From Candidatus Woesearchaeota archaeon (GTDB lineage: Archaea; Nanobdellota; Nanobdellia; Woesearchaeales; WJKL01), in contig JAAOYC010000036.1 in the NCBI GenBank assembly GCA_018221125.1, positions 1 to 49,230 of the forward strand: 49,230 bases of DNA, read 5' to 3'. Position 1 is the stretch's first letter. Each line of letters opens with the position of its first letter. The notes under the pieces are model-generated. The model did no database searches. It worked only from the letters and a program-made list of their open reading frames with translations, and had not been told where the DNA came from. Position numbers and translations under genes: made by a program. Positions 33,798-49,230 of this stretch are shown in pieces.

Positions 33798-33803
33798 TTA
33801 GTA

Positions 33804-34510: not shown

Positions 34511-34573
34511 TATTTAAACTTAACTGAAAAATCCATCAGGTTTAAAAACAGCCTTGATTATAATTTATTGAGA

Positions 34574-35632
34574 ATGACTAAAATATTCAAACCAAAAGAT
34601 GTAATAAAGTATGCTGAAACAAGGCTTTTTGGCAGTAATGTTGCTGCTAATGATGTTAGAAGCATTGAATTACATACTGCAGTATTGCCTTCTCAGCTTC
34701 TTGAAAATGTATTAAAAGAAGGTTTTGAGGAAGTTGAGCAGGAGAATGGTCGTGAACCAATTTTTTTCAAAGAAGGAACTTTGTATATCCCTCAATACAG
34801 TGGATTTGGAAGGGGAACAAGATATGAAGAGATGATTAAGGCATATATTGAGGCAAGCGGAAAGAATATTAAATTTACAGAACGTTTTCCTGAAGATGAT
34901 ACAAGAAAAACATATCTTTATAGTTATTTTGCATATGATCTGGTAAAAAGATTGTTTCTTAAAGAGGGGATGGATACTATTAATACAATAATATTTGGAC
35001 CTGTTGATGCTATAGCTAAACAAGCCAATGTTGTTAAGAAAGCAAATAATGAATATCTTCCTTTCCAATATCTGTATATTAATGATGGGTTTGTTTTGAA
35101 TCTAAGTTATGTTTATGCTGACCAGGCTGGAACTCTGATTGAAAAAATAATGCATGAATACAATGCAATGTATAAAAAAGATGGAAAAGACAGAGAAATA
35201 AATTTCCTGATGTTTGGAAGAGTTGGCGGACTGGCAGATGGATTAAAAAGACATGATCTAGTTTATCCAACAGGAGTAATCAGTGAGGTTGATTTGAAAA
35301 AAGCATCAGGATTGGTCCTTCCTTTTGAAAATGTTCTTGCGCAAGGAGAAAACCAGGGGCTTAATTTCAATCCAGTCAGTATTGTAAATGAAGAGTATGA
35401 GACTCTTGAAGAAGCTAAGAACAAAGGATCTATTTGCGTTGAAAAGGAATTAAAGAAATCTGTCTCTGCTATAAGCGAAGCTAATGAAAACTATGCAGGG
35501 CATGTTATTGGAAGATTTGGCTTTGTAGGTTATGTTTCTGATTTGCCTTTGAAAGGAGATAATCTGGCAACAGAATTAGATTCTGACAAAGGAGAGCAGG
35601 ATGCTGTAAAGAAGATTATTGAGAATATCTAA
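34574..35632 (+). CDS. hypothetical protein, C-terminal half weakly nucleoside-phosphorylase-like (PNP/UDP superfamily)
   Basis: FLMFGRVGGLADGLKRHDLVYPTG and CVEKE...VGYVSDLP resemble the RxGxxGG and E(M)E...SD motifs; weak, by eye only. Confidence 0.4.
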   Translation: MTKIFKPKDVIKYAETRLFGSNVAANDVRSIELHTAVLPSQLLENVLKEGFEEVEQENGREPIFFKEGTLYIPQYSGFGRGTRYEEMIKAYIEASGKNIKFTERFPEDDTRKTYLYSYFAYDLVKRLFLKEGMDTINTIIFGPVDAIAKQANVVKKANNEYLPFQYLYINDGFVLNLSYVYADQAGTLIEKIMHEYNAMYKKDGKDREINFLMFGRVGGLADGLKRHDLVYPTGVISEVDLKKASGLVLPFENVLAQGENQGLNFNPVSIVNEEYETLEEAKNKGSICVEKELKKSVSAISEANENYAGHVIGRFGFVGYVSDLPLKGDNLATELDSDKGEQDAVKKIIENI

Positions 35633-35693
35633 GGTTTAATTAATTCTGGGTATTTCACCAACATTTAAAAAGCCTCTTACTTTTTGTTTTCTT

Positions 35694-36257
35694 ATGGAGT
35701 GCCAACATTGTGGGATGTGCTGCGGGGATAATAGAATCAATATTAACCTGACAGTTGGAGACATATGGAGGATCTGCAGCCACTTGAAAATTTCTGTTGA
35801 TAAGTTTTTTGAAAACTATTCAGGGTTTAAGAAGTTTGGAGACCCAAGAAATCCTGATGTTTTTGATGTTGACTTAGGACTGAATATGCCCTGCAAATTC
35901 TGGGTTGATAACAGATGCTCTATCTATTCAGCAAGGCCTGTCAACTGCAGGATATTTCCTTACTGGCTTCTTGCATCTGTTCCTGATGAACAAGTAAAAG
36001 ATATTCTGCATTATAAGTGCAAGTATGACTTAAGCAAAAAAAAGATGTACAAGAAATACCAGGATGCAATTGGCAAGGTTTTAATGGAAGAGTCCAAATG
36101 GTTTGATGTTGACAAGCAGATTGGAAATGAAGAGATTAAGGATAAAGTTCCTATTGAAGAGATTAGAGAGATAATTGCAAAAAAGTTAAACAAGATAGGC
36201 AGGCATAGCAAAGATATAGAAGATGCTGAAAGAATTCTAAAAAAGAAAGATTTATAA
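35694..36257 (+). CDS. YkgJ/UPF0153-type cysteine-cluster protein
   Basis: CQHCGMCCG at the N-terminus and CKFWVDNRCSIYSARPVNCRIFPY. Confidence 0.65.
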   Translation: MECQHCGMCCGDNRININLTVGDIWRICSHLKISVDKFFENYSGFKKFGDPRNPDVFDVDLGLNMPCKFWVDNRCSIYSARPVNCRIFPYWLLASVPDEQVKDILHYKCKYDLSKKKMYKKYQDAIGKVLMEESKWFDVDKQIGNEEIKDKVPIEEIREIIAKKLNKIGRHSKDIEDAERILKKKDL

Positions 36258-36296
36258 ATGTTAATATCATATTAATACCATATATAGGTGATGTTA

Positions 36297-36539
36297 ATGG
36301 TACAAGCTATAATAAATATAAATGAACGGGCAAATAGGATCTTGAATATTGTGAAAGCTAAATTTGGACTTAGAGACAAAAGCGAAGCTATTGAGATGAT
36401 GGCTAATCAGTATGAAGAGGAAGTTCTTGAACCTGAATTGAGACCTGAATATATTGAAAAGATTCAGAAGATAAAGAAACAGAAGAAGATTAAAATCGGA
36501 ACTATTAAAGATTTCGAAAAGCGTTTTGGATTAAACTAA
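36297..36539 (+). CDS. putative antitoxin of a RelE-type module
   Basis: Paralog of 43596-43853 (NERANRILNIVKAKFGLRDKSEAIEMM versus SDYANRVLGVIKEKYGLKDKSEAIDKF); GGTGA Shine-Dalgarno; 1-nt gap to the toxin gene. Confidence 0.6.
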   Translation: MVQAIININERANRILNIVKAKFGLRDKSEAIEMMANQYEEEVLEPELRPEYIEKIQKIKKQKKIKIGTIKDFEKRFGLN

Positions 36540-36540
36540 G

Positions 36541-36804
36541 ATGTATAAATTAGAAACAGATGAAGTTTTGTATAAAAAATTCTCTAAATTATCAAAGAAG
36601 AATAAGAAACAACTTAAAATAATCCGTGATAAGGTTATAGAAATTCTTAAAAATCCTCATAGATACAAAAATCTAAGGCATGATATGAAAGATTATAAAA
36701 GAGTTCATATCGATAAACATTTTGTTCTAGTCTTTTCAATTGATGAAACTTCTAAAACAGTAACTTTAGAAGATTATGACCATCATGATAAAATATATAA
36801 GTGA
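36541..36804 (+). CDS. relE: RelE/ParE-superfamily toxin (archaeal RelE-like)
   Basis: 87 aa; NLRHDMKDYKRVHIDKHFVLVFSIDETSKTVTLEDYDHHDKIY fits the RelE C-terminal pattern. Confidence 0.7.
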   Translation: MYKLETDEVLYKKFSKLSKKNKKQLKIIRDKVIEILKNPHRYKNLRHDMKDYKRVHIDKHFVLVFSIDETSKTVTLEDYDHHDKIYK

Positions 36805-36810
36805 TATCTT

Positions 36811-37176
36811 ATGAAATCAGTAATGGTGTTTGGAACATTTGATATCCTGCATAAAGGGCATCTGAGTCTTTTTTCTCAAGCTAAAAGATATGGAGATTAT
36901 CTGATTGCAGTTGTTGCCAGGGATAAGACAGTTGAAAAAGTTAAAGGCCGGAAGCCAAGAAATAATGAAAAGAAACGTTTGAAAGAGGTTTCTAAATATG
37001 CTGACAAAGCTATCTTGGGATATATCTATGATAAACAAAAGATTGTTAAGAAGTATAAACCAAATGTCATCTGCTTAGGATATGACCAAAAGGATTTCAT
37101 TGATGGATTGAAATTCAAGAGATTGAAAGCATATAAGCCGCATAAGTATAAAAGTTCTAAATTACATCTCTTCTAG
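36811..37176 (+). CDS. ribL: cytidylyltransferase-fold FMN adenylyltransferase (RibL-like)
   Basis: VMVFGTFDILHKGHLSLF...LIAVVARDKTVEKVKGRKPRNNEKKRL...ADKAILG. Confidence 0.75.
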   Translation: MKSVMVFGTFDILHKGHLSLFSQAKRYGDYLIAVVARDKTVEKVKGRKPRNNEKKRLKEVSKYADKAILGYIYDKQKIVKKYKPNVICLGYDQKDFIDGLKFKRLKAYKPHKYKSSKLHLF

Positions 37177-37719
37177 AATATTTTTTTTAGAATAATCTGC
37201 ATTATTTGTCTTTAATATCTCTTCAAATACAGCTGAATTTTCTATTGGGATCTTGACAGCACCATTTACTAATCTTATCCCGTTTAATTCATCTAGCACT
37301 CCTCTTGTCCCTCTTCCTGCAAGTATATAATTAAATTTGACTTTTTGAGCATGGCTTAGTCTTTTTAGATTATACCAAAATAATGTAAATGCTCTAAAAC
37401 CAAGTGTTTCGCTGAATCTCTTTCTATTGAATGCACTTATTCCCTCTAATAAAACACCTGTTCTTGCGAGAAAAGAAGATGAAAAAAAATCTTTAAGCAG
37501 CATCTGCTTTATATCTATATTTCCTATCTTCTTTAATTTTGATTTTATTCTTTGTATCTTATCAAGCCTTTCTTTTAGAGAACCTTCTAAGAAAATAACC
37601 ATTATATCTATATCTCTTGCTTCTGATTTTCCTTTTACAGCAGAGCCGTAAATGACAATATCAAATATTGTTTTGTCTTTTTTCTCAGATTCCAAGTGTT
37701 TTTTTAATCTTTTCAGCAT
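37162..37719 (-). CDS. minimal nucleotidyltransferase (MNT) domain protein
   Basis: IFDIVIYGSAVKGKSEARDIDIMVIF (GS...DxD). Confidence 0.75.
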   Translation of the reverse strand: MLKRLKKHLESEKKDKTIFDIVIYGSAVKGKSEARDIDIMVIFLEGSLKERLDKIQRIKSKLKKIGNIDIKQMLLKDFFSSSFLARTGVLLEGISAFNRKRFSETLGFRAFTLFWYNLKRLSHAQKVKFNYILAGRGTRGVLDELNGIRLVNGAVKIPIENSAVFEEILKTNNADYSKKNILEEM

Positions 37720-38023
37720 CTTCTTTTAATAATTCAGCAGTTTCTTTGTCCATCCTTTGAGTGTAGCTGTCTTGATAGAAAGGAAAATCCCTGTCTGCAA
37801 TATTGTAAATCTCTTTATGTTTTTCTTCCAGTACTCTAAATCTGTTTGAGTGTGAAGATGGAATAAAACCTTCTTTTCTTAATATCAGAAGATCACATAA
37901 AGCAGCTATTGCTTTGAAGAATAATGTTGTTGCTGTGTTGTATTTTTCTTTATTGAACGCTTCTTTTCCAAGATCATAATATTCTTCGAAGTTTTCTATC
38001 AAAATCTGCTCTTTTTCATCCAT
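37685..38023 (-). CDS. HEPN-like domain protein
   Basis: YYDLGKEAFNKEKYNTATTLFFKAIAALCDLLILRKEGFIPSSHSNRF helical pattern; overlaps the downstream MNT gene by 35 nt. Confidence 0.6.
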   Translation of the reverse strand: MDEKEQILIENFEEYYDLGKEAFNKEKYNTATTLFFKAIAALCDLLILRKEGFIPSSHSNRFRVLEEKHKEIYNIADRDFPFYQDSYTQRMDKETAELLKEDAEKIKKTLGI

Positions 38024-38025
38024 GA

Positions 38026-38118
38026 TGTAATATACAACGTAGAACTACTATTTAAATGTTTTGGTTGTATTGTACAACAATATAGGTTGAGATGAGTTGA
38101 TTTGATGTATTGTACAAC
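38026..38118. promoter_or_regulatory. three TGTAWTRTACAAC boxes phased exactly 40 bp apart (38026, 38066, 38106)
   Basis: tgtaatatacaac, tgtattgtacaac, tgtattgtacaac; they flank the minus-strand TATA at 38048-58 of the HEPN-MNT operon. Confidence 0.55.
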
Positions 38119-38174
38119 AGATATTATAATCCAGAGACATAAACTTTTTAAAGAATTCTGCAAGATTATTTTAT

Positions 38175-38498
38175 ATGGCGCAAATAAATCTTGAGACTAT
38201 TATGAAAGAAAAGTTTTCTGATGAAGAGAAAGCACAAAGAGACATATTAATAGGAGATCAGAAAGAAGTATGTGAAAAATTATTCAAGGATTGTGCTTTT
38301 TATGATGTGTGGATTCAAGAGCTTGAAGAGTGTAAGAAATTAAATACACTTGAAGAATATAACGAAAGACTTCAAAGCCTGAGTTTTGAACGCTGCAAAA
38401 AGCGGGCTTTCGGAGAAGATTCTGCTGAGATAAGTGAAAGGATTATACAAATAGATGCGGTTTATAGAAAGCTATTAGACCTCAAGAGTGCTTATTAA
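38175..38498 (+). CDS. hypothetical protein
   Basis: 107-aa ORF; TATA-like ctttttaaag about 25 nt upstream. Confidence 0.55.
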   Translation: MAQINLETIMKEKFSDEEKAQRDILIGDQKEVCEKLFKDCAFYDVWIQELEECKKLNTLEEYNERLQSLSFERCKKRAFGEDSAEISERIIQIDAVYRKLLDLKSAY

Positions 38499-38772
38499 TT
38501 ACTTCTTCTAAAGGTTCTATTCTTTCATTTGGAGGCGCTTTTCTGTCTGTATAAGAACAAGTGTTATTTTCATCTCTTGTACAAGGATAGTAAGGAGCAG
38601 AGCATTTATCTTTATTTCCCCTGTATCTGCAGCCTAATCCATATTCCCTCTCTGACTGCCTTAGACTTCTTTGCCAATCTGCAAATTTTTCAAATGTAGG
38701 GTATTGATCTAGAAATTCCTGTTTTCTGCGTTGTTCTTCTTCAAAACCAGGTTTTTTAAATATGAATCCCAT
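38482..38772 (-). CDS. hypothetical protein
   Basis: 96-aa ORF, several Cys (GCRYRGNKDKCSAPYYPCTRDENNTC). Confidence 0.5.
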   Translation of the reverse strand: MGFIFKKPGFEEEQRRKQEFLDQYPTFEKFADWQRSLRQSEREYGLGCRYRGNKDKCSAPYYPCTRDENNTCSYTDRKAPPNERIEPLEEVINKHS

Positions 38773-38840
38773 TATTTCCTCTGATTTGAGTATAATCTCA
38801 ATATATTTAAGTTATTTGAATACTACTCAAAAGTAGTCAA

Positions 38841-38860
38841 AAACCGAAAGGTTTATAAAG
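38841..38860 (+). promoter_or_regulatory. BRE+TATA promoter (AAACCGAAAGGTTTATAAAG) of tfb
   Basis: About 30 nt upstream of the ATG at 38890. Confidence 0.65.
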
Positions 38861-38889
38861 AAGTTGTTTCTTATATATATAAAAAGGTT

Positions 38890-39855
38890 ATGGGTTTTTT
38901 CTGTAGTTGTTTTGAGTACTATAAAGCTTACTCGAGGTTATGCAAAATGGTTGTTGAAACAATAAAAAAATGTCCGGAATGCGGAGATGCTAAATTCTTT
39001 GCAAATAAGAAGAAAGGAGAAGTTATCTGCAAAAGCTGCGGTTTTGTTGTAGAAGATTTTCTAGTTGATTTTGGAAAAGAGAGGATGATAGGTGAAGAAG
39101 ATTTTGCTAAGAAGAGCAGAACAGGAGCTCCTTATGATCCGAGAGTTGCAAATGGATTGATGACAGAAGTTGGAAATTATGCTGATCTGAAGAATCTTCC
39201 TAAGAAAACAAGGATGCTTATGAACAGGATAAGGCAGAAAAACAGATGGACAAGCTCTGCATTAGAGCATAATCTGAATACTAATCTGTCTAATCTGAAA
39301 TTAATTGCTTCTCAGCTTAAATTGCCTGACAGCATTGAGAAAGAAGCAGCTAGAATATACAGAGAATGCGCTGAAAAAGGCTTAACAAGAGCAAGAGCTA
39401 ATGATAGCATTATAGCAGCTGTTGTTTTCTTGTCTTCAAAGCTTCATGCAATGCCAAAAACTTTGAATGAAGTAGCTAATGCTTCTAAATTGAACAAGTT
39501 TGACATTGCAAGAACCTATAAGATGGTTATAAGGAGATTAGGGATTAAAGTAATGCAAAGTAATCCAATTGATTTCATAGCAAGATTTGCCTCTGAACTA
39601 AACTTAGGAGCAAAAACACAGACTCAGGCAGTTAAATTGCTTGAAAAGATACAGAAAATAGGAATTGATTCTGGTAAAAGCCCAACATCTTTGGCAGCTA
39701 CAACTTTGTATATCTCTGCTTTGATGAACAAAGTAAAGGTTACACAGAAATCAATAGCTGAAACAGCTGGAATTACTGAAACAACTTTAAGACAGAGAAC
39801 AAAGGAAATGCTTAATAAGTTAGGAATCAACAAGAAAGATATAAAGAAGAAATAA
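38890..39855 (+). CDS. tfb: transcription initiation factor IIB (TFB)
   Basis: Zinc ribbon CPECGDAKF...CKSCGFV, B-linker, two cyclin-fold repeats; alternative start MVVETIKKCPECG at 38947. Confidence 0.9.
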   Translation: MGFFCSCFEYYKAYSRLCKMVVETIKKCPECGDAKFFANKKKGEVICKSCGFVVEDFLVDFGKERMIGEEDFAKKSRTGAPYDPRVANGLMTEVGNYADLKNLPKKTRMLMNRIRQKNRWTSSALEHNLNTNLSNLKLIASQLKLPDSIEKEAARIYRECAEKGLTRARANDSIIAAVVFLSSKLHAMPKTLNEVANASKLNKFDIARTYKMVIRRLGIKVMQSNPIDFIARFASELNLGAKTQTQAVKLLEKIQKIGIDSGKSPTSLAATTLYISALMNKVKVTQKSIAETAGITETTLRQRTKEMLNKLGINKKDIKKK

Positions 39856-39869
39856 AAGGTGAATAGAAA

Positions 39870-40310
39870 ATGATGCATTTAGACGATCACGAAAAATTAA
39901 GAACACAGGATGTTCCTTATACTGAATTAGTTATGGATTATGTAAGGAGCAAAGGACTGGCTGTAAGATTAGGCGGTTCAGCAGCAGAAGGTAATATTGA
40001 TTATAATGATGTTGATATCTTAGCAATAGGATTAAATAAAGACGTCTTAAAGGCAGTAAGAGGGCTTGAAAGATTAGTAAAAACTAAGCCTTTGCCAAAA
40101 AAAACTAATGATGGAGTGTCAATAAGAGTAGATCGTGTTGGCCAAAATGAGAAATACTTAAATGATAATGTAGACCATAGGTACAATATTAAGATTGGAA
40201 GTACTGATATTGACTTATGTCTAAAATGTGTTACACTAGATAATGCACTTGAGGTTTATGCAAGTAAGATGTTAGAACAAAAAATGACAAGGGCGGGTGG
40301 AAATGAGTGA
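39870..40310 (+). CDS. minimal nucleotidyltransferase-fold protein (operon gene A)
   Basis: VRLGGSAAEGNIDYNDVDILAIG (GS...DxD) and a later TDIDLCL acidic position. Confidence 0.6.
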   Translation: MMHLDDHEKLRTQDVPYTELVMDYVRSKGLAVRLGGSAAEGNIDYNDVDILAIGLNKDVLKAVRGLERLVKTKPLPKKTNDGVSIRVDRVGQNEKYLNDNVDHRYNIKIGSTDIDLCLKCVTLDNALEVYASKMLEQKMTRAGGNE

Positions 40311-40632
40311 AGATACTAAAAGCATGCTGGAACATTATTTTGTCAAATATGTAGTTGGATTGAAAACAATAGAAGAGATGTCTGGTCCTGATGTATGGAA
40401 TTCTGAAATTTCTAGAAATCAGGTAAAAAAAAGTAAGAAAGAATTTACAGGAGCAGTGAAAGCTATATTAAAAGGATTAGAAGAGGGTGTTGTTGAAGTT
40501 GGAGGCGGAGTTGAAAAGCTGCAGCTTGAAGATGTATTAAGATTTTCTGAAGATAATGATTGGTTTAAAACAGAAACACTAACAGGATTGTATAAAGTAT
40601 ATAATTGTGCTACTGGAGAGAATTATAAATAA
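40303..40632 (+). CDS. hypothetical protein (operon gene B)
   Basis: ATG at 40303 overlaps the end of gene A by 8 nt. Confidence 0.55.
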   Translation: MSEDTKSMLEHYFVKYVVGLKTIEEMSGPDVWNSEISRNQVKKSKKEFTGAVKAILKGLEEGVVEVGGGVEKLQLEDVLRFSEDNDWFKTETLTGLYKVYNCATGENYK

Positions 40633-40644
40633 AGGTGATAGAAA

Positions 40645-41160
40645 ATGACAGATGAAAAATCAAAACAAGAACCATCAGGAGAGAGGCTTCCAGAAAGAGG
40701 TCTGGCTTTATGCATGCATGATGGAGAAATATATGAAACAGGAAGAAGTGTAGAACCAGGAAGAGTTCTGGCTTTATGTTTTCATGAAGGGGTATGGTGT
40801 GGAAAAGAATATAAGCTAAATGAAGATTTCTATGCTGTAGCTGAAAAACCAAGAGATGATCTTAAAGACTTAGTTAATAAAAAAGAAGAACCAACTCCAA
40901 GACAAAAACAAATTGAAATGATAGTAACAAATGGGTTAGGTTATGATTCCAGAACAACATATCAAGAAAAAAATCCAGATTTGTTTTTTAGCCCTGGTTT
41001 GTTAGGTGATTCTGATATCAAGAATACTCATGAAGGATTACACGCCCATCTGGCAGAAATGGAACATAGAGTTGATCCTAATAAAGTTTCAGAAAAAGTT
41101 GTTGATTTATACAGGGAATTGGCAGTTATGACCTATTTTTATGGAGAAGGACTCTTATAA
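40645..41160 (+). CDS. hypothetical protein carrying two ALCxHxGE-type units (operon gene C)
   Basis: GLALCMHDGEIYETG and VLALCFHEGVWCG resemble the repeat core of the five paralogs at 44258-48463. Confidence 0.6.
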   Translation: MTDEKSKQEPSGERLPERGLALCMHDGEIYETGRSVEPGRVLALCFHEGVWCGKEYKLNEDFYAVAEKPRDDLKDLVNKKEEPTPRQKQIEMIVTNGLGYDSRTTYQEKNPDLFFSPGLLGDSDIKNTHEGLHAHLAEMEHRVDPNKVSEKVVDLYRELAVMTYFYGEGLL

Positions 41161-41177
41161 ATAAAGGTGAATGAAGA

Positions 41178-41597
41178 ATGACAGAATATGAGGGATTTGA
41201 TGTAGGAGATATAACAAAATTAAAAGAACAAGATAGACTTTATGTTGATGATTTACTTTGCGCTTTAATTGGTGCAAGTTTACATGTAGGGCTTGTTGAA
41301 CAAACAGCTAAAAGAGAACCTCGTGATTATGTTAGCATATTAGCAGTAGGGTATGGAAAAGCTATTATGGAAGCATTATATGGTGCACTTAGACTTGATG
41401 AGACTGCTGGTAAAGTGGCTTTTGATGGATCAGAATATAATATAGAAGAAATTAACCCAGTATCTGAAGATTTAGCAATGGATTTAAATTTAGGATATAA
41501 AATCCAAATTAATGACACTAAAATAAAGCTATATATAAAAGAAGTTACTTCGGATGAATTATATAAAACCTATTTAGAGAGTATTTTAGACGAATAA
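41178..41597 (+). CDS. degenerate (predicted inactive) paralog of the gene A nucleotidyltransferase (operon gene D)
   Basis: ALIGASLHVG...RDYVSILAVGYGKAIMEA aligns with RLGGSAAEG...NDVDILAIGLNKDVLKA; the acidic residues are replaced (DVD to YVS, DID to KIK). Confidence 0.55.
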   Translation: MTEYEGFDVGDITKLKEQDRLYVDDLLCALIGASLHVGLVEQTAKREPRDYVSILAVGYGKAIMEALYGALRLDETAGKVAFDGSEYNIEEINPVSEDLAMDLNLGYKIQINDTKIKLYIKEVTSDELYKTYLESILDE

Positions 41598-41610
41598 AGG
41601 TGAATAAAAA

Positions 41611-41760
41611 ATGGTAGAAGATAAAATAAAACAAGAACCTGTGCCTAAAGATCCAAGGCTAGAAGATATTATGAAAAGAATATTAATGAGACCTGATAAA
41701 GGCCTGTTAACTGATTCAGAAAGGCCTTATGGACAGCATAAAAAAGAGTATAATAAATAG
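41611..41760 (+). CDS. possible 49-aa protein (operon gene E), absent from the ORF track
   Basis: AAGGTGAATAAAAAATG junction identical in style to its neighbours; MVEDKIKQEPVPKDPRLEDIMKRILMRPDKGLLTDSERPYGQHKKEYNK. Confidence 0.5.
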   Translation: MVEDKIKQEPVPKDPRLEDIMKRILMRPDKGLLTDSERPYGQHKKEYNK

Positions 41761-41774
41761 TAGTGAACAATAAA

Positions 41775-42035
41775 ATGGAAATAAAAAGAACAGAAATAAC
41801 AACAGAAGGATTAAGCCCTGTTGAAAAGGCTGCAACTAGTATGGATAGTATTCAATACGACTTTACTCCAGCTCCAGAAAGTTCAGCTGACCAAGCGTTC
41901 CTAAAAACACTTGATGCATTGTTATTAAATATACCTTATAGCGTTGCAAGGTCTGAGAAAACTACTGTTCAGAATAATCAAGGGGGATATAAACATTATA
42001 TTGTAACAATCAAATTTACTGGAGAAGGTGAATAA
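41775..42035 (+). CDS. hypothetical protein (operon gene F)
   Basis: First ATG of the 41763 ORF; ends ...TGEGE with its stop inside GGTGAATAA. Confidence 0.55.
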   Translation: MEIKRTEITTEGLSPVEKAATSMDSIQYDFTPAPESSADQAFLKTLDALLLNIPYSVARSEKTTVQNNQGGYKHYIVTIKFTGEGE

Positions 42036-42039
42036 GAAA

Positions 42040-42396
42040 ATGAATGCAAAAGAAATGTATGATGCAGCAACTGGATTTGTTAGAGATACAGTAGCTGAAG
42101 CTGCTCTTAGAATTATGTTATTCAGACCTGGTGGATTAGATGTTGCAGTTGTTGATGCACAATTACCATTAAGACCAGAAACTGAAAAACATCCATTGCA
42201 TGATATAGACTATCCTGATTCTTTTCTAGGAGATTTGGTAATGATTGGTGATTTTGATGATAAAATTGACTATTATGATTCATACTCTTCAGACCACATA
42301 AACTTTCTTCCTCTTCCAGGATTTGAAAATTATACCTTTAATAAGGAAAGATTCTCAAGCCTATTAGATGGTTATTTAGGAGAAGAAGGTGAATAA
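42040..42396 (+). CDS. hypothetical protein (operon gene G)
   Basis: ATG 8 nt after GGTGA; ends ...GEEGE with its stop inside GGTGAATAA. Confidence 0.55.
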   Translation: MNAKEMYDAATGFVRDTVAEAALRIMLFRPGGLDVAVVDAQLPLRPETEKHPLHDIDYPDSFLGDLVMIGDFDDKIDYYDSYSSDHINFLPLPGFENYTFNKERFSSLLDGYLGEEGE

Positions 42397-42401
42397 AGAA
42401 A

Positions 42402-43172
42402 ATGACAGAACAGATTCAAGAACAATATATAGAAAGATTAAGAGAAAGGACAGTTCTTGGAAATGTACTACGAGAAGTTGCTGAGTATATGGGCAGAAAA
42501 CCTCGTGAAGGAAAGATTTCTAGTCCTGCTAATGGGTATGATTCTGTTAGTCCAAGTGAGTTTTTTATGGGATATCCTAAAGCAAACCCTAGATTGTATA
42601 TAGTAAGGCAAGAACACCTTCCATTTGACCCAAATATTAAAGCAATATCTTCTACTGGAAGCAGACTGCTTCTAGAGACTTCTAAAGTAGATCATGAAAA
42701 ATGGGGAGATTGTCTAGAAGAATCAGTTATGCAGGCATATATCAAAGAAGGACAGAAAACAGTCCAACTTGATGAAACTCCTATAATCAAGACAAGAACA
42801 CAAAATGTAGCAGAAGAGGGAATAAATATGCGTACTCTTTTAACAATCCTCCCAAGATATAGAACTGCTGATTTTGAAGAAGCAATAGGTGCAATTGATG
42901 AGATGTATGCAAAAGGATGTTTTTTAGAAGACTTGACACAGAAAGAAGGATGGGGTGGCAGCCAAACTCCAGATGGAGAGAGAGTTCAAGAACTAAAAAT
43001 GGAATTACGACAAGTACAGACAATGGCACTATCAAGAGAACAATTACCTATTCTAACTCTAAAACAGATACCAACTACTTATATGATTCGTAAAAGAATT
43101 TTTAATGCTAAAATCTTACGAATGAATACACCAGAATTAGAAGCTTACTTAAAAAAAATTATAGGTGAATAA
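42402..43172 (+). CDS. hypothetical protein (operon gene H, 256 aa)
   Basis: Largest gene of the operon; no family recognised; ends ...KIIGE with its stop inside GGTGAATAA. Confidence 0.6.
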   Translation: MTEQIQEQYIERLRERTVLGNVLREVAEYMGRKPREGKISSPANGYDSVSPSEFFMGYPKANPRLYIVRQEHLPFDPNIKAISSTGSRLLLETSKVDHEKWGDCLEESVMQAYIKEGQKTVQLDETPIIKTRTQNVAEEGINMRTLLTILPRYRTADFEEAIGAIDEMYAKGCFLEDLTQKEGWGGSQTPDGERVQELKMELRQVQTMALSREQLPILTLKQIPTTYMIRKRIFNAKILRMNTPELEAYLKKIIGE

Positions 43173-43176
43173 AAAA

Positions 43177-43482
43177 ATGTCAGAAGAAATTCGTAATAAA
43201 GTAAAAGAACTGAACAATGCTGAATTAAATGCATTTCTTTATGAGTTGAGCTGTGAAAGCAGAGATGTTGAAGACAAAGAAACAATAGAAATCATGAAAG
43301 ACCTTGGACGGATTGCAAGAGATATCATGATTAGTAAAGGTCTTGTTAATCATCTTAGTAATGAAACTATGCAGCATGCATCAACTGATAGAACTGTCCC
43401 TAGTTATCTGGGCATGGAAGACTGGGATGAGTTAAAAATCCTCTATAAGATAATTGATGATCCTTATTCTCCGTCAGAATAG
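43177..43482 (+). CDS. hypothetical protein (operon gene I)
   Basis: ATG 8 nt after GGTGA; followed by an oligo-T tract at 43486-43500. Confidence 0.55.
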   Translation: MSEEIRNKVKELNNAELNAFLYELSCESRDVEDKETIEIMKDLGRIARDIMISKGLVNHLSNETMQHASTDRTVPSYLGMEDWDELKILYKIIDDPYSPSE

Positions 43483-43595
43483 AAATCTTTTTTTTCTTCA
43501 GCAACTGGATTTCTTCAAATATTAATTTTATAAAAACAAAAACTTTATAAATAAGAGTGACTTATACTCACATAAAATCACTTGAGGTGAGAATA

Positions 43596-43853
43596 ATGAC
43601 TATAAATCTAAGAGCTCAGATATCTGATTATGCCAATAGGGTATTAGGAGTAATAAAAGAAAAATACGGGCTAAAAGATAAATCAGAAGCAATAGATAAA
43701 TTTACTGAAATGTTTGGAGAAGAATTTGTAGAAAGTGAGGTAAAGGAAGATATTGTCAAGGATATGATCAAAGAATGTGAAGGGTGGGAGAGAAAACATA
43801 AATTTAAAAGAAAAATGTCTATAAAAGAATTAGATAAGCTATGCGGTATGTAA
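43596..43853 (+). CDS. putative antitoxin of a RelE-type module (paralog of 36297-36539)
   Basis: GAGGTGA Shine-Dalgarno 5 nt before the ATG at 43596; MTINLRAQISDYANRVLGVIKEKYGLKDKSEAIDKF. Confidence 0.6.
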   Translation: MTINLRAQISDYANRVLGVIKEKYGLKDKSEAIDKFTEMFGEEFVESEVKEDIVKDMIKECEGWERKHKFKRKMSIKELDKLCGM

Positions 43854-43854
43854 G

Positions 43855-44133
43855 ATGTTTGAGTTTGATATATCCTGCGAAATTAAGATATTAATAAGAA
43901 AACTTTTAAAAAAAGATAAAAAAAGAGTTGAAATTTTAAATAAAAAAATAAAAGAAATAATCAATAATAATGCAGAAACAATTGACAGATATCATAACTG
44001 CAGTTATGATTTAAAAGAATATAAACATGTTCATATTGATAAAAGTTTTGTGTTATTATTCAAAGTATATAAGGGGAAAAATATGATTTATTTTTGGAAA
44101 TTAAAACATCACGACAATCTCTTTAAGAAATGA
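43855..44133 (+). CDS. relE: RelE/ParE-superfamily toxin (paralog of 36541-36804)
   Basis: YDLKEYKHVHIDKSFVLLFKVYKGKNMIYFWKLKHHDNLF; 1-nt gap from the antitoxin gene. Confidence 0.65.
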   Translation: MFEFDISCEIKILIRKLLKKDKKRVEILNKKIKEIINNNAETIDRYHNCSYDLKEYKHVHIDKSFVLLFKVYKGKNMIYFWKLKHHDNLFKK

Positions 44134-44257
44134 GCTGTCCCTTTTTCTGGACTTAAGTCCATGAATGTGGACGAGTAATTTTATTTCTTTAACAACTGAA
44201 TCTGTTCAATAACTAATTTACCTGTGTTTTCTGCTTTTTTTCTTTTTAATTTCTTAA

Positions 44258-45142
44258 TTATTTTTTTGGAATGTTATAGTCATCATCCTCTCCTGTAAAC
44301 ATACCATCATTTGGGTTAATCAATTGTGTTTGTTGTGATCTTTCTTCTAATATTTTTTTAACTAGTTCTGGAGGGATTGAGCACATTGCCCCTATATCTT
44401 TTGAAGGGATTATAGGAACATCACTATGAGTAGTAAATAATCCATATTTCCCACTATCATATAATACTTCATTGTGAGAGCATAAAGCAAGAACATTGTC
44501 AGGTCTTTCTGTTATTTCTGATTCTGTGTTTTCAGGACCAAACATAGAGGGACGGAAGCTTACTTTGCAGACTTTTCTACCTGGTGCATAGTATAAGTCT
44601 CCATCGTGAGAACATAAAGAGTAGATAACTTCATCTAATTTTCTTTCTTCTTTATTTGTAAGTGTGTGATATACTGTTCTCCCTGCTGCATCTAATAAGT
44701 TTCCGTCATGGGAGCATAAAGCAAGAACTATGTCTTGTCTTTCTGCTATTTTTTCATCTGTTGATATTTTATATATCCCTTTTAAAGGTGCAGAATATAG
44801 TTCTCCATTGTGAGAGCATAAAGTATTATAGTCAATTAAAAAATACTTTGTTATTGTTGCATCTGATAATGTGTTACGTGCAGAGTATCTCCCTCCATCA
44901 TATAATTCTCCTTTATGTGGGCATAAAGCTTTAACTATTCCTGGTCTTTTTTTTATCAAGAGATCTTCATTTCCATTTACGTATAAGAATATTTTATTTT
45001 CAACAGCATAGACTAAACCATTCTCTCCTCCTTGTGTAAGTCTTTTTTCCAAAGGCTCTACTGGCTTTTCTTTTCTAGCCTTTAATCTAGCTTTATATCT
45101 GTTTACCAGTTCTTCATTTGTTTTTCCTTTGTTTATTGTCAT
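44258..45142 (-). CDS. repeat-protein paralog 5 (conserved basic N-terminus plus ~36-aa LCSHxGxLY repeats)
   Basis: MTINKGKTNEELVNRYKARLKARKEKPVE; units ALCPHKGELYDGG, TLCSHNGELYSAP, ALCSHDGNLLDAA, SLCSHDGDLYYAP, ALCSHNEVLYDSG; C-terminal AMCSIPPELVKKIL. Confidence 0.75.
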   Translation of the reverse strand: MTINKGKTNEELVNRYKARLKARKEKPVEPLEKRLTQGGENGLVYAVENKIFLYVNGNEDLLIKKRPGIVKALCPHKGELYDGGRYSARNTLSDATITKYFLIDYNTLCSHNGELYSAPLKGIYKISTDEKIAERQDIVLALCSHDGNLLDAAGRTVYHTLTNKEERKLDEVIYSLCSHDGDLYYAPGRKVCKVSFRPSMFGPENTESEITERPDNVLALCSHNEVLYDSGKYGLFTTHSDVPIIPSKDIGAMCSIPPELVKKILEERSQQTQLINPNDGMFTGEDDDYNIPKK

Positions 45143-45945
45143 TTTAAGACTCCTTTATTTTTTAAGATTCTTTCAACTAGGTCTGGAGGGACTGAGCACA
45201 TTGCTGCTGTATGTCCATCTGTCGGGGCAAGAAAAGGCATGTCATGTATAGTAGCGTAGATGCCGCCATATCTTCCTCCATCTAATAAATTGGTATTGTG
45301 AGAACATAAAGCTTCAACAAGGTCTGATCTTGATGCTACTCGATTTACCCCTTTTTTTGTGAAACAGAAAACGGAAAGTTTGTGTGCGTAATATAAGTTT
45401 CCGTCATGGGAGCATAAAGCATTGACTTGTGTTGCAATTGATATTTCTTCATTAGCTTGGGTTTTGAATATTCCAAGCCCTGCATCGTATAATTCTCCAT
45501 TATGGGCGCATAAAGCTTTAATTTCGCCGCGTCTTGCAGCTATTTTAATATTTGAGAAGATTTCTTGTATATATCTTGCATTTGCATCGTATAATATTTC
45601 ATTATGGGAGCATAAAGCGTTAACAGTTCTTTCTCTTGTTTTTACAATTCTGTCAGATGCTTCACTTACAGTACTTATACTATTTCCTGATGCTGCATAT
45701 AATTCTCCATTATGCACACACAAAGCATTAATAGTATCTATCCTAGATGTTAGAAAGATGCTATCTTTGAAATCTTGAGTTAAATATATTTTGTTGTTTA
45801 AAGCATAAACCAAACCATCCTTCGATGTTTTTTGTTCTACTGGTTCTTCTACTGGTTCTTCTACTGGCTTTTCTTTTCTAGCTTTTAATCTAGCTTTATA
45901 TCTGTTTACTAATTCTTCATTTGTTTTTCCTTTGTTGATTTTCAT
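45139..45945 (-). CDS. repeat-protein paralog 4
   Basis: Start at the ATG at 45945 (MKINKGKTNEELVNRYKARLKARKEKPVEEPVEEPVE), overlapping the upstream stop as ATGA; five LC[SVA]H units; AMCSVPPDLVERIL. Confidence 0.75.
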   Translation of the reverse strand: MKINKGKTNEELVNRYKARLKARKEKPVEEPVEEPVEQKTSKDGLVYALNNKIYLTQDFKDSIFLTSRIDTINALCVHNGELYAASGNSISTVSEASDRIVKTRERTVNALCSHNEILYDANARYIQEIFSNIKIAARRGEIKALCAHNGELYDAGLGIFKTQANEEISIATQVNALCSHDGNLYYAHKLSVFCFTKKGVNRVASRSDLVEALCSHNTNLLDGGRYGGIYATIHDMPFLAPTDGHTAAMCSVPPDLVERILKNKGVLK

Positions 45946-46760
45946 TTTTTTAATATTCTTTTGACCATTTCTGGCGGGACTGAGCACATTGTTGTTACCT
46001 TTTTTACATCTGGGATTATTACTTTTTTATCGAAGGTATCATATATGCCATCATAACTTCCTGCGTCAAGTAATCTTCCGTTATGAGAACATAGTGCAAA
46101 AATACCTTTCTCACTAATTCCTTTCATAATTGATGATTCATGGTATACTGAACGAGATTCTGTGTAATATAATTCATTTTTATGGAAACAGAAATCCTTG
46201 ATATCAAAATCTACAAGTAATCTTCTTTCGTTAGTTAATGTTTTAATTATAGTATTATCTATTGCAGCATATAACTCTCCTTTATGAGAACGTAGACGAT
46301 AAATTATACCATCTGGTCTTGCTAATTCTTCGTTTGTCTCTGTATTATATATGATAGTAAAAGGTTTTGGTTCAAGAGGCAATTCAGCAAACATTGCATC
46401 AACTAGTTTTCCGTTATGGGAACACATTGCTATGATAGATTTATCCCTTTCTCTGACTATTTCATTTGTGAGTGTGTTGCTTATCTTGCCTTTTGTGCTA
46501 TGTATGTGATATAATTCCCCATCATGATAACACAACTGATGACATGATTCACCTGTGTTTATTACATAGACAGGATTTTGTCTTGATTTTGTAGATAAGA
46601 ATACCTGGTTTAAAATTGCATAAACCAAACCGTTTTCTTCTTCTTCCAAAGGTTCTTCCAAAGGTTCTTCTACAGGTTCTGGTTTTTCTTTTCTAGCCTT
46701 TTTTCTAGCTAAATACTGTTTTACTAGTTCTTCATTTGTTTTTCCTTTGTTTATTGTCAT
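45942..46760 (-). CDS. repeat-protein paralog 3
   Basis: MTINKGKTNEELVKQYLARKKARKEKPEPVEEPLEEPLEEE; more diverged repeats (QLCYHDGELYH, AMCSHNGKLVD, RLRSHKGELYA, DFCFHKNELYY, ALCSHNGRLLD); TMCSVPPEMVKRIL. Confidence 0.75.
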   Translation of the reverse strand: MTINKGKTNEELVKQYLARKKARKEKPEPVEEPLEEPLEEEENGLVYAILNQVFLSTKSRQNPVYVINTGESCHQLCYHDGELYHIHSTKGKISNTLTNEIVRERDKSIIAMCSHNGKLVDAMFAELPLEPKPFTIIYNTETNEELARPDGIIYRLRSHKGELYAAIDNTIIKTLTNERRLLVDFDIKDFCFHKNELYYTESRSVYHESSIMKGISEKGIFALCSHNGRLLDAGSYDGIYDTFDKKVIIPDVKKVTTMCSVPPEMVKRILKK

Positions 46761-46763
46761 TTT

Positions 46764-47597
46764 TTACTTGTGTCTTCTTAAAGGCATGGTCATTGTGTCT
46801 CTAAGATAACCTTTTATTTTCCTTACAATATCTGGTCCAACTGAACACATTGCTGTTATAGCTCCTGTAGAAGGACTTATAACTCTGTTGTCTAGAGTGT
46901 CGTATATGCCTTCATACGCTCCAGCATCTAGTAATCTTCCGTTGTGAGAGCATAAAGTGTAAACCCTCTCATCTCTTTCTACCATAGTTTCATCTTTTAA
47001 TGAGCAGATTATCTGACGCTCTGCTGCTTCATATAACTCTCCGTTGTGGGAGCATAAAGAATAAATAATGGCTTGTCTTCTTCTAAAGAGGTCACTTTCA
47101 ATTTCTAATGTCTTACGAATATTTCCTCCTTCTGTACTATACAGTTCTCCGTTGTGGGAGCACAAAGCAGTGATATCACCCACAGGCCATCTGTCTGCTA
47201 CTTTTATGTTTATTAGTGTTTCATATATTTTGGTTCCTGATGCATCGTACAATTTGCCATCATGAGAACATAAAGCCTCAACATCTTTTTTTCTTATTTT
47301 TGTTATTCCATCAATAAATTTTAATGTTTTACAAATAGTTTTTCCATATGCATCATATAAGTCTCCGTCATGTACGCATAAATCATTAACTGTATGGTCT
47401 CTTGCTGCTATCCAGGTGTTATTTTCAAAATCTTGGGTAAGGTATATCTGCTTATCAAAAGCAATAACTAATCCACTTTCTCCTTCTTGAACCTTTTGTT
47501 CTAAAGGTTCTTCTACTGGTTTTTCTTTTCTAGCTTTTAATCTAGCATGATACTGCTCTATTATTTCTTCGTTTGTTTTTCCTTTATTGATTTTCAT
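46764..47597 (-). CDS. repeat-protein paralog 2
   Basis: MKINKGKTNEEIIEQYHARLKARKEKPVEEPLE; DLCVHDGDLYDA, ALCSHDGKLYDA, ALCSHNGELYST, SLCSHNGELYEA, TLCSHNGRLLDA; AMCSVGPDIVRKI. Confidence 0.75.
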   Translation of the reverse strand: MKINKGKTNEEIIEQYHARLKARKEKPVEEPLEQKVQEGESGLVIAFDKQIYLTQDFENNTWIAARDHTVNDLCVHDGDLYDAYGKTICKTLKFIDGITKIRKKDVEALCSHDGKLYDASGTKIYETLINIKVADRWPVGDITALCSHNGELYSTEGGNIRKTLEIESDLFRRRQAIIYSLCSHNGELYEAAERQIICSLKDETMVERDERVYTLCSHNGRLLDAGAYEGIYDTLDNRVISPSTGAITAMCSVGPDIVRKIKGYLRDTMTMPLRRHK

Positions 47598-48463
47598 TTT
47601 GGTTGTATATCTGTCTGGAGTTTATCCATAGTTTTTCTATCTATACTGAGCATTGCAAAGATTTGTGCATTTTTATCCATAAATTTCTTGCCAGATTCTG
47701 CATCGTATATTCCTCCTCCATCGATTGGAGAATAGAGCAGTCTTCCATTATAAGAGCATAAAGCTGAGATTGGGGGTGTTTGGGAAAATTCCACATTCTG
47801 ATGTGTAAGGTATATCCCTTCATAAACTCCTGCATCGTATAATTCTCCATCATGAGAACATAAGTCTCTAACAGCGCCATCTCTTTTTGCGATTATTGTC
47901 TCATAGGGTTGGTAATTATAAACACTGTGTATTCTTCCATTAGATAATGCTTTATGCAATTCTTCATCATAAGAGCATAAAGCAAAAACACCTGTCTCTT
48001 CTGTTGCTATATGTTTGCCTCTTACAATGAATCCTACTATTCCTGTGTTAATTGTGAAAATATCTTTTTCACTGGCTGCATATATCCTGCCGTCATGAGA
48101 GCATAAATCATTGATGTTTGGTTCAAACGTTGCTATTTGTTTATCTTTATTGACATTCCTCACCTTTCCTTTACCATACCCTTCATATAATTCTCCTTTG
48201 TGAATACATAAAGCAGTGATTATCTCGCCTCTGCTACTTATCACTCCTTCAGTACCTTGCGACTCATCATATAACCATATATTTCCTCCAGAGGCATAAA
48301 TCAGACAATCTTCTCCACTTGTATGGAGTCTTTCTTCCAGGGGTTTTTCTACTTTTTCTTCTAAAGGTTCTGGTTCTTCTACTGGCTTTTCTTCTCTAGC
48401 TTTTAATCTAGCTTTATACCTGTTTACTAATTCTTCGTTTGATTTTCCTTTATTGATTTTCAT
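47594..48463 (-). CDS. repeat-protein paralog 1
   Basis: MKINKGKSNEELVNRYKARLKAREEKPVEEPEPLEE; ALCIHKGELYEG, DLCSHDGRIYAA, ALCSYDEELHKA, DLCSHDGELYDA, ALCSYNGRLLYS; start overlaps the VWA stop as ATGA. Confidence 0.75.
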   Translation of the reverse strand: MKINKGKSNEELVNRYKARLKAREEKPVEEPEPLEEKVEKPLEERLHTSGEDCLIYASGGNIWLYDESQGTEGVISSRGEIITALCIHKGELYEGYGKGKVRNVNKDKQIATFEPNINDLCSHDGRIYAASEKDIFTINTGIVGFIVRGKHIATEETGVFALCSYDEELHKALSNGRIHSVYNYQPYETIIAKRDGAVRDLCSHDGELYDAGVYEGIYLTHQNVEFSQTPPISALCSYNGRLLYSPIDGGGIYDAESGKKFMDKNAQIFAMLSIDRKTMDKLQTDIQPK

Positions 48464-49230
48464 TTTTCTCTTAGTAAACTTATTGGCAATTTTTTGTAAT
48501 AACTGGAAACAAAATTAACCATTATCTTGCTTAAGTCATCATCTCCTTTTACATTGAAGACAGGAACTCCTATCTGTTCAAGATAACTAGAATACCCGGT
48601 ATCTGAGCCTATCTGGATGTGGGCATAATCTGATTCTGCAACTTTTTCTTTTAATCTTTGTTTTTGAGCATCACTTAGACTGAATTCTCCATCTGATATT
48701 GACAAAACAAATGAATCTGGAGCTATTTCTTCTTCTAGTGCATCTATATCAAAGCTTGTGTTTCCAGAAGGCATGACTAAGAGAGCTTCTGCAACTTCTC
48801 TTGCATTTCCCTTGATGACCTGCTCTCCTGAAAATCCTAATACGCAGTTGTCAATATAATTGGATACTCCCTGCCCTTCCAGGAAATTGTCTATTCCAAA
48901 ATATCCTTTTAATGCAAAGTGGTATTTGCTTTTGACTCCCCATGGAATAAAGCTTTTGTCTCCTGTATCAATATTCATACCATCTGGATGCCAAGCCATG
49001 CTTCCAGAACGGTCCATTAAAGCAATCTTTAGCTTAGGGAATCTTCTAGGATGTGTCTTGAATGAAACAGGGAATTTTATACTGTGTCTTGATGTTTTTA
49101 TTGCTAATTCTCCATTTTCATTGATTCCTATGCCTCTGTATCTTATTTTTCTTTCATCTTCTTCAACAAATTTTCTTCCATAATGCACTATAGGCATTGA
49201 AGCAGCATCTGTATAATGAGATGTTTCTAC
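48460..49230 (-). CDS. von Willebrand factor A (VWA) domain protein, 5' end probably outside the window
   Basis: MIDAS residues IALMDRSGSM (DxSxS), PSGNTSFD (T), LSISDGEF (D); the frame stays open from the ATG at 49197 up to the window edge (VETSHYTDAAS). Confidence 0.7.
   Translation of the reverse strand, partial: VETSHYTDAASMPIVHYGRKFVEEDERKIRYRGIGINENGELAIKTSRHSIKFPVSFKTHPRRFPKLKIALMDRSGSMAWHPDGMNIDTGDKSFIPWGVKSKYHFALKGYFGIDNFLEGQGVSNYIDNCVLGFSGEQVIKGNAREVAEALLVMPSGNTSFDIDALEEEIAPDSFVLSISDGEFSLSDAQKQRLKEKVAESDYAHIQIGSDTGYSSYLEQIGVPVFNVKGDDDLSKIMVNFVSSYYKKLPISLLREK

Follow-up and report, generated by a model that had tools for sequence, protein, structure and literature searches.

A probable lineage-variable cassette hotspot behind the transcription factor B gene in a Candidatus Woesearchaeota contig

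Archaeal integrons, some of them in Nanoarchaeota, are defined by IntI and attC (PMC9668308). In the hyperplastic regions of T4-type phages, ORFan cassettes are flanked by promoter/stem-loop motifs (PeSLs) and are shuffled (PMC2839356, PMC4122927). Here we describe nine small, tightly packed genes, A to I, that follow the transcription factor B gene (tfb) in a contig from a Candidatus Woesearchaeota metagenome-assembled genome (MAG; locus tags GOV06_*); the window analyzed is the complete contig of 49,230 bp. The genomes of DPANN archaea are tiny, much of their gene content is dark matter, and the ways in which they acquire and express genes are poorly understood. Comparison of the window with other contigs carrying tfb showed that the slot between the 3' ends of tfb and of a convergent conserved gene is hypervariable and, in this genome, holds an array of its own, made of cassettes that appear to be promoterless. 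The locus as a whole is probably a flexible cassette hotspot that is driven by tfb and differs from lineage to lineage. The unit and its signals are the following.

38846-38860, plus strand: B recognition element (BRE)/TATA-like promoter GAAAGGTTTATAAAG, upstream of tfb and within the block conserved with relatives
38947-39855, plus strand: tfb, archaeal transcription factor B, a conserved core gene and the unit's first cistron
39856-39872, plus strand: canonical junction AAGGTGAATAGAAAATG between tfb and A, made of stop, Shine-Dalgarno (SD) sequence, purine spacer and start
39870-40310, plus strand: gene A, minimal pol-beta-type nucleotidyltransferase (NTase), 146 amino acids (aa)
40303-40632, plus strand: gene B, 109 aa, acidic, overlapping the end of A; member of a small cassette family
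40645-41160, plus strand: gene C, 171-aa fusion
41178-41597, plus strand: gene D, 139-aa paralog of A
41611-41760, plus strand: gene E, 49-aa basic ORFan
41775-42035, plus strand: gene F, 86-aa acidic ORFan
42040-42396, plus strand: gene G, 118-aa very acidic ORFan, isoelectric point (pI) 4.25
42402-43172, plus strand: gene H, 256 aa, alpha/beta N-terminus and sigma-54 region I-like C-terminal helices
43177-43482, plus strand: gene I, 101-aa acidic ORFan, the unit's last cistron
43488-43495, plus strand: run of eight T residues (T8), 5 nt past the stop of I

An earlier reading made from the letters alone (the sequence-only reading) had proposed nine co-directional genes at 39870-43482, and all nine were found at these positions and with the sizes listed, using the ATGs led by an SD sequence. 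Where a listed frame begins at GTG, an ATG 2 to 4 codons further on has the proper distance from GGTGA. From A to I the gaps measure -14 to +17 nt. The unit extends beyond what was proposed, with tfb, missed in that reading, at its head. The tfb product matched the Pfam models TFIIB (8e-34) and TFIIB zinc ribbon (6e-11), its start (MVVETI at 38947) is the one used in relatives, and the gene ends 14 nt ahead of A, with the canonical junction. Within 38700-43700 the BRE/TATA consensus was matched only twice, at 38846 before tfb and at 43538 after I, and the longest T run is the T8 after I, which is likely an archaeal oligo-T terminator. From these motifs we infer that tfb and A to I form one ten-cistron transcript.

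The region behind tfb was compared in ten contigs: the window and nine other contigs carrying tfb, several of them short. Identity of tfb was 78-86% over most or all of the length in seven of these contigs and 53% in one, and one holds a fragment. At the protein level, tfb identity was 80-86% in four MAGs (L005-L008) and 53-84% in four metagenome contigs (L014-L017), and L004 carries a 3' fragment of tfb. The upstream backbone of the window is syntenic with relatives at 17236-23855 and 36805-37173, and DNA homology of L006 to the window upstream of tfb begins at 38832. In a blastn comparison of the window with seven of the tfb contigs (L008 and L017 were left out), DNA homology stopped at 39872/39873, the ATG of A, in five of the seven (L004, L005, L006, L014, and L016) and, in L007 and L015, at 39856-39858, directly behind the stop of tfb. 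What follows tfb in the relatives, and the trace of the convergent conserved gene that was found in the window, are given below.

L005: one gene, 140 aa
L006: four tightly packed genes of 99-121 aa, then co-directional open reading frames (ORFs) of 91 and 387 aa
L007: four genes
L008: one gene
L015: two genes, one of them a receiver domain
L004, L014, L016, and L017: other genes
Window 44182-44236, unstranded: relic of the 3' end of the convergent conserved gene, 55 nt, 82% identity (blastn against L006 11792-11846, E = 2e-8)

The tfb proteins of L007 and L008 are 97% identical, yet four genes (1452 bp) in the former and one gene (384 bp) in the latter lie between the same breakpoints, with homology breaking at the tfb stop and resuming at the 3' end of the convergent conserved gene. 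The L005/L006 pair likewise has different content between the same breakpoints. Because the 55-nt relic marks the right border at 44182, the variable segment of the window was placed at 39873 to about 44181, and it contains A to I and a two-gene YafQ/ParE-like module.

In the ten tfb tails at least 27 cassette ORFs were listed, and all of them run in the same direction as tfb. A pI below 6 was found for 16 of 19 cassette proteins, compared to 22 of 52 other contig genes (Fisher p = 0.0026), and membrane-like segments were found in none of the 19. No Pfam match was obtained for 18 of 19 cassette proteins from relatives. Homologs of A to I were sought by exhaustive phmmer over 1.84 billion representative proteins; those of A, B, C, and H, followed to 13 genomic contexts, were never found together. 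Only B, among the nine, has a homolog in another tfb tail. Recurrence was screened with Smith-Waterman shuffles of 34 cassette proteins. B is the second cassette of the window; its homolog in L004 is the first there, and that in L021 lies within an array. Similarly, L007_9943 (position 4) resembles L015_8954 (position 1; z = 11). Since two families recur at different positions, the comparison points to a shared cassette pool that is reshuffled and not to in-place divergence alone.

The junction that had been reported before nearly every start was present at seven starts as GGTGA(A)T-purines-ATG, laid out as stop, (A)AGGTGAAT, purine spacer, and ATG. Variants of the canonical copy lie at 40634, 41166, 41599, 42027, 42388, and 43164; the A/B boundary is without the motif. 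The sequence AAGGTGAATARAAAATG, with up to three mismatches, had seven matches in the window versus 1.27 expected, a number reached in 0 of 100 shuffles, and six of the seven fall in the operon. GGTGA was present at -20 to -5 in 7/9 operon genes versus 2/42 other genes of the contig. When a relaxed pattern was searched in the window and 154 kb of related loci, 15 of the 16 matches fell within cassette arrays. Four cassettes are preceded by an identical GGTGAATAGAAAATG: A in the window, the B homologs in L004 and L021, and the fourth cassette of L006; the identical junction before the B homologs spans 15-21 nt, despite only about 31% amino acid identity between B and its L004 homolog.

For the pairs C/E and D/E, the junction repeats run on into the first codons; between C and E the repeat covers 36 nt with 81% identity (40638-40673 and 41604-41639; direct repeat D4), spanning the junction and the first nine codons (MTDEKSKQEP versus MVEDKIKQEP). 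Several cassettes in the window and L006 start with ATGACAGA(A/T). Upstream, F, G, and H end in -GE because the junction is read as their last two codons plus stop (GGT GAA TAA). In F and G this ending is encoded by the junction sequence GGTGAATAA, and H stops at the same sequence, before the NPxLE motif of its family. The simplest reading of the junction is that a strong SD sequence and an unstructured purine spacer have been selected for re-initiation on a long polycistronic mRNA.

In the mechanism that we propose, transcription would start at the tfb promoter (38846), continue through tfb and A to I, and stop at T8 (43488). Each cassette would be translated from its own strong SD junction, which would couple it to the upstream cistron. 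The cassettes would be drawn from a pool of genes for small, soluble, mostly acidic proteins, mainly in DPANN-type archaea, and would be gained, lost, and reordered by recombination, with the conserved flanks, and probably the repeated junctions too, supplying the homology. As a consequence of this proposed turnover each lineage would hold a different set, and the nine products would thus be independent accessory proteins rather than the subunits of one machine. Their size, charge, and turnover and the adjacent toxin-antitoxin (TA) modules suggest that their most likely role would be in conflict or niche functions that turn over fast, for example in immunity, anti-defence, or interaction with a host. 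The view of the sequence-only reading that this is an accessory-island neighborhood was supported, as was its expectation that A to I would belong to no known defence system: no family was matched at E ≤ 1 in a scan of A to I against PADLOC-DB v2. Scans of A to I against NCBIfam and Pfam gave no useful match and nothing at useful E values, respectively.

Several observations weigh against this interpretation. The tfb tails of L007, L008, and L015 are without the junction, which may be just an optimal SD sequence that evolved in place. The evidence for co-transcription consists of promoter and terminator motifs, and internal T5-T6 runs at 40984, 41136, 42561, 42920, and 43099 could attenuate transcription. 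Just ten loci were compared, several of them short. Furthermore, homologs of H and of the C domain sit among housekeeping genes elsewhere, and thus not every cassette is obviously a conflict gene.

The alternative that survives best is that the junction is a recombination site, either of an integron-like capture platform or of a T4 PeSL analogue, at which cassettes are precisely inserted, excised, and reordered behind a resident promoter. The breakpoints in the comparisons with five relatives fall on the ATG after the junction, the junction is almost exclusive to cassette arrays, and cassette families recur at different positions. The conserved junction before divergent B homologs, the repeats that run into the first codons of C/E and D/E, and the -GE ends of F, G, and H, with H stopping before NPxLE, are also what such a site would leave. 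However, translational selection on the SD sequence explains most of the conservation of the junction, cassettes are swapped without the motif in L007, L008, and L015, and the A/B boundary does without it. No recombinase was seen in the contig: a phmmer search of all window ORFs with the tyrosine recombinase of L002 gave no match below E = 0.4, a search of limited sensitivity in a contig that ends 5.7 kb downstream, and Phage_integrase was matched by none of the about 40 window proteins scanned against Pfam. An attC site is an imperfect inverted repeat of roughly 55-140 nt, which gaps of at most 17 nt are too short to hold, and no inverted repeats were found between the cassettes. With no IntI found either, an integron was rejected. 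The PeSL-type arrangement, a short conserved motif flanking variable ORFan cassettes between core genes, was found here, and the left breakpoint falls at the junction ATG in five of seven comparisons; three relatives are without the motif, and internal breakpoints cannot be mapped because the cassettes are unrelated. Overall, it is unlikely that the junction is a dedicated recombination site. That it also supplies homology for cassette exchange is a doubtful proposition, given room by its restriction to this locus, by homology that breaks at the ATG, and by the clipped C-terminal end of H. Equally speculative is a gene-capture platform in Woesearchaeota and related DPANN that would work with neither integrase nor attC, in which promoterless single-ORF cassettes, each with a junction of about 15-20 nt at its head, would be stacked behind the essential tfb gene, use its promoter, and be exchanged or reordered at the junction.

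A less probable alternative to the tfb-driven hotspot is that A to I are one multicomponent system evolving so fast that its homologs escape recognition, for example in NTase-based defence or signaling with A as the enzyme, D as a regulatory pseudoenzyme, and H as an effector or adaptor. The tight packing and translational coupling, the predicted pair of an active and an inactive NTase, and the accessory neighborhood with TA modules nearby are in keeping with such a system. However, no two of A, B, C, and H have homologs together in any of the 13 contexts, in L004 tfb is followed by a B homolog but not by A, no PADLOC match was found for A to I, and the slot holds unrelated genes in relatives. 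The gene order was conserved in none of the relatives examined, the outcome that the sequence-only reading had itself named as refuting, and the single nine-component system which it implied found no support. Thus, we consider one system quite improbable.

It is very unlikely that the segment is the remnant of an integrated virus or plasmid. The tfb protein does match phrog_20431 (3e-57), mobile elements typically carry TA modules and are dense in ORFans, and the best homolog of A lies beside a tyrosine recombinase in L002. However, tfb is a syntenic core gene outside the insert, and the L002 recombinase could be a housekeeping XerA. No virus or plasmid module, which the sequence-only reading had listed as a result that would speak against it, was found for A to I. 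There was no match at E ≤ 0.01 in PHROGs for A to I, none in tblastn of A and H against phages, and none in blastn of the operon against plasmids; a virus or plasmid origin was rejected on these results. For H, Foldseek found no BFVD structure at E ≤ 1e-3, and the C domain has no relatives in IMG/VR. A junction 18-mer had three matches, each to a single viral contig, which were read as chance level. No integrase or att repeats flank the segment. The GC content of the operon (0.32-0.35) is like that of the remaining contig (0.29-0.40 throughout), and the operon is therefore not compositionally foreign.

At 34% GC, stops are expected at about 0.073 per codon by our own arithmetic, and by the same arithmetic the probability that a frame stays open for at least 86 codons by chance is near 0.0015; with stops this frequent, nine abutting same-strand frames are not a product of chance. 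It is hardly credible that the ORFan frames E, F, G, and I, which are without homologs and of which E is just 49 aa long, are not real genes, because 86- to 118-codon open frames are improbable at this GC content, each of the four has an SD sequence at proper spacing and abuts its neighbor, and no rival long frames overlap them.

The suggestion that A is a minimal nucleotidyltransferase was borne out by its fold, a conserved motif, and the family alignment. In an AlphaFold2 (AF2) model of A (pLDDT 91.1) and Foldseek comparisons to the Protein Data Bank (PDB), A has an alpha-beta-alpha-beta-alpha-beta NTase fold. Nearly all of the top 50 PDB matches are pol-beta-type NTases or RelA/SpoT, including TdT, CCA-adding enzyme, cGAS, PAP, pol beta/mu/lambda, and ANT(2''), with E values of only 1e-3 to 2e-2, probabilities of 0.9-1.0, and TMq of 0.35-0.51. 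About 25 representative homologs were found. Among the 26 family members, G36-S37, D47, and D49 are nearly invariant and the T112-D-I-D115 strand is conserved, so that A has the hG[GS]-x9-13-DhD/E signature and a third acidic residue. NTP_transf_2 was weakly matched by 9/26 members; A itself reached no Pfam NTase model, and phmmer of A against the PDB gave nothing meaningful. A forms a small, new branch within the pol-beta NTase superfamily and is probably enzymatically active.

Gene D had been described as a degenerate paralog of A, and this was confirmed. BLASTP of A against D was negative, a result overturned by a Smith-Waterman shuffle test (score 111 versus 32.8 ± 6.1 for shuffles; z = 12.8), according to which A and D are paralogs over the full length of D. 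In phmmer, D matched the A homolog in L002 at about 3e-6. D is presumed to be an inactive NTase because the GS and DxD residues have been lost in the alignment. The closest A homolog (43% identity) is that in L002, where a tyrosine recombinase (Phage_integrase, 5e-20) lies 170 nt downstream (L002 867-1808). The recombinase could be either a mobile-element integrase or a housekeeping XerA; a search of the L002 contig for a tRNA next to the A homolog, the idea being tRNA-linked integration, found none.

The nearest described relatives of A are the MNT proteins of MNT-HEPN pairs, which share its pol-beta fold, hG[GS]x9-13DhD signature, and small size. Hhalign of A against the MNT of the window aligned the GS..DID motif (E = 4e-4). 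Unlike those proteins, A falls below every Pfam NTase model and has a distinct core of about 115 aa. It was also considered whether A and B are themselves an MNT-HEPN toxin-antitoxin pair. This was rejected: a direct reading of B showed no Rx4-6H motif of HEPN, B has no Pfam, NCBIfam, or PADLOC match, and homologs of A and B are found apart, those of A also without B. The mini-NTase family of roughly 115 aa is worth following in its own right.

The remaining products had been regarded as orphans. For most of them this was correct: E, F, G, and I, like D, had only self matches among the representatives searched; however, B, the C domain, and H have small families. B has three representative homologs (P0046, P0081, and P0084); the one in L004 lies directly after tfb, and the one in L021 lies inside another packed array with the identical junction before it. 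As had been proposed, C carries the repeat of the neighboring paralogs p1-p5 (see below), with two copies of the A/L-L-C-x-H-D/E-G motif. These ALCxH(D/E)G repeats occupy the N-terminal residues 21-51 (DNA 40690-40741 and 40756-40807; repeat D1). Residues of about 80-160 form a separate family, the "QKQIE-VTNGLGYD-EGLxxHLAELD" domain, which has about 20 representatives and is usually N-terminal in them. Homologs of this domain adjoin ribosomal protein genes (L012) or a Bro-N gene (L020).

That H has no recognizable fold, as had been stated, was correct in that no significant structural neighbor was found; however, H folds confidently in the AF2 model (pLDDT 89.6), and its family has a sigma-54 region I-like tail. 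Foldseek of the model against PDB and BFVD gave nothing at E ≤ 1e-3, and the weak matches, BirA-like (E = 0.02, TMq 0.22) and TBP/VETF-like viral (probability <0.5), were set aside. About 35 homologous representatives were found by exhaustive phmmer (homologs P0009-P0090). The named members are from Nanoarchaeota, Nanoarchaeia, and Woesearchaeota MAGs, and one distant branch lies in a Bdellovibrionota MAG. A word-indexed homolog search was less productive, returning H alone for the H query and three proteins for the H-family alignment, and the exact H sequence was not found on other contigs.

Proteins of the H family are about 250 aa long with an unrelated N-terminal alpha/beta domain. At the C-terminus 17/33 members matched the Pfam model Sigma54_AID (best E = 2.5e-10); the match of H itself reached E = 0.12 only, and its region I-like helices lie at about 194-255. 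Hhalign against an approximate sequence of Escherichia coli sigma-54 region I gave E = 1e-4 and a probability of 56%. Hmmsearch of the family profile against the PDB gave no match, not even to sigma-54 chains, and Sigma54_CBD and Sigma54_DBD were found in none of the 33 members. To our knowledge, archaea lack sigma-54 and its AAA+ activators. The likeness to sigma-54 region I is in the Q/L-rich motif ...Q.P.L...ILRMs..EL.......NP.LE. In contrast to sigma-54, the motif is C-terminal rather than N-terminal, the family is without core-binding or DNA-binding domains, the hosts are mostly archaea, and H is cut before NPxLE.

A conserved partner for H was rejected, with neighbors differing in every context recovered: archease, a 452-aa uncharacterized protein, GAPDH/PGK, and CDC48. 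One homolog, P0013, sits directly after the CDC48-type AAA+ gene. The 452-aa gene (L009 8211-9569) begins 9 nt downstream of an H homolog and encodes a CxC...CxH pattern like that of a SWIM zinc finger; its product had no Pfam match at E ≤ 0.01. A literature search on archaeal sigma-54 AID and on hypervariable regions in Woesearchaeota or DPANN gave nothing directly relevant, and an archaeal family with a sigma-54 region I-like tail is worth a systematic survey.

On the right, A to I are followed by a TA-like module and by genes on the opposite strand.

43557-44133, plus strand: two-gene module with its own BRE/TATA at 43538, encoding a 98-aa putative antitoxin and a 92-aa YafQ/ParE-like toxin
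44258-48463, minus strand: five tandem paralogs, p1-p5, 272-294 aa
48460-49197: sixth convergent gene, unrelated to the paralogs, with a DRSGSM MIDAS-like motif

The proposed bracketing of the operon by toxin-antitoxin modules was upheld in part. On the left, a canonical MNT with a Pfam match lies at 37162-37719, 2 kb upstream of A; its HEPN partner was called by eye from an Rx5H motif. On the right, the 92-aa protein matched YafQ_toxin (0.0016) and ParE_toxin (0.0095), both below the cut-off. The convergent genes had been described as a VWA array. None of the six had a Pfam VWA match at E ≤ 0.01, and only 48460-49197 has a DxSxS-like motif. The paralogs p1-p5 share the N-terminus MxINKGKTNEEL..KARKEKP, carry one to five ALCSH(D/N)GxLYD repeats detected by regular expression, mostly about 35 aa apart, and gave a weak match to WD40_like only. 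The conserved convergent gene closing the slot behind tfb in relatives seems to have given way to them here.

Upstream of tfb the flank at 37162-38772 also differs: the window has the MNT/putative HEPN pair and two Cys-rich ORFs (107 and 96 aa), and L005 and L006 have a gene that reads as asparagine-synthase-like. A block of about 13 kb further upstream (24000-36800) is absent at this position in L005-L007, where the counterparts of window positions 23855 and 36805 are about 0.4-0.7 kb apart. It holds a minus-strand NAD-salvage-like cluster with an NrtR-type Nudix regulator, a QRPTase-like phosphoribosyltransferase, an isochorismatase-type amidase, and an AAA_28 plus cytidylyltransferase protein. 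The source was judged archaeal because the contig carries a TFIIB-type factor and a 97-nt, presumably intron-containing tRNA. ARAGORN called the latter (2144-2240; Rfam tRNA, 53.5 bits) as tRNA-Asn with anticodon ATT; it is probably an intron-containing archaeal tRNA for which the anticodon call is unreliable.

The individual genes are ordinary dark matter; it is the hotspot behind tfb and its standardized junction that merit a systematic survey. In the ten contigs the locus is a reproducible parking place for new genes directly 3' of the gene for a general transcription factor, and the predicted mode of expression, read-through plus a standard SD junction, appears to be reproducible across it. 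It offers defined small acidic proteins as candidate immunity, anti-defence, or host-interaction factors. A capture platform, if that is what the locus is, would give its hosts a constantly renewed repertoire of such proteins, and if the junction mediates exchange it would be a new cassette-capture mechanism outside integrons. For annotation, the locus is a caution that tight operon structure alone is not evidence of a multisubunit system.

Among known systems, integrons (PMC9668308) resemble the locus, as predicted here, in having co-directional, mostly promoterless, mostly orphan single-gene cassettes behind a resident promoter, and in a content that varies between genomes and is drawn from a shared cassette pool. 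Unlike in integrons, it is a housekeeping gene, and not intI/attI, that the array adjoins, and no IntI was found. Flexible islands between conserved convergent genes resemble the locus in that fixed, conserved flanks enclose accessory genes that vary, with TA modules and numerous ORFans. The tfb locus differs from them in its strict co-orientation, its 11- to 23-nt coupling to an upstream essential gene, its locus-specific junction motif, and its very small acidic cassette products. T4-type hyperplastic regions are the closest analogy for how the locus may work. Both have small ORFan clusters between core genes that differ between close relatives, and in both a short conserved regulatory motif, proposed to supply homology for modular shuffling, precedes each gene. 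However, here the host is a cellular DPANN archaeon, the motif is stop, SD sequence, and start rather than promoter and stem-loop, exchange at the motif is only proposed, and the cassettes appear to be promoterless and to depend on the tfb promoter.

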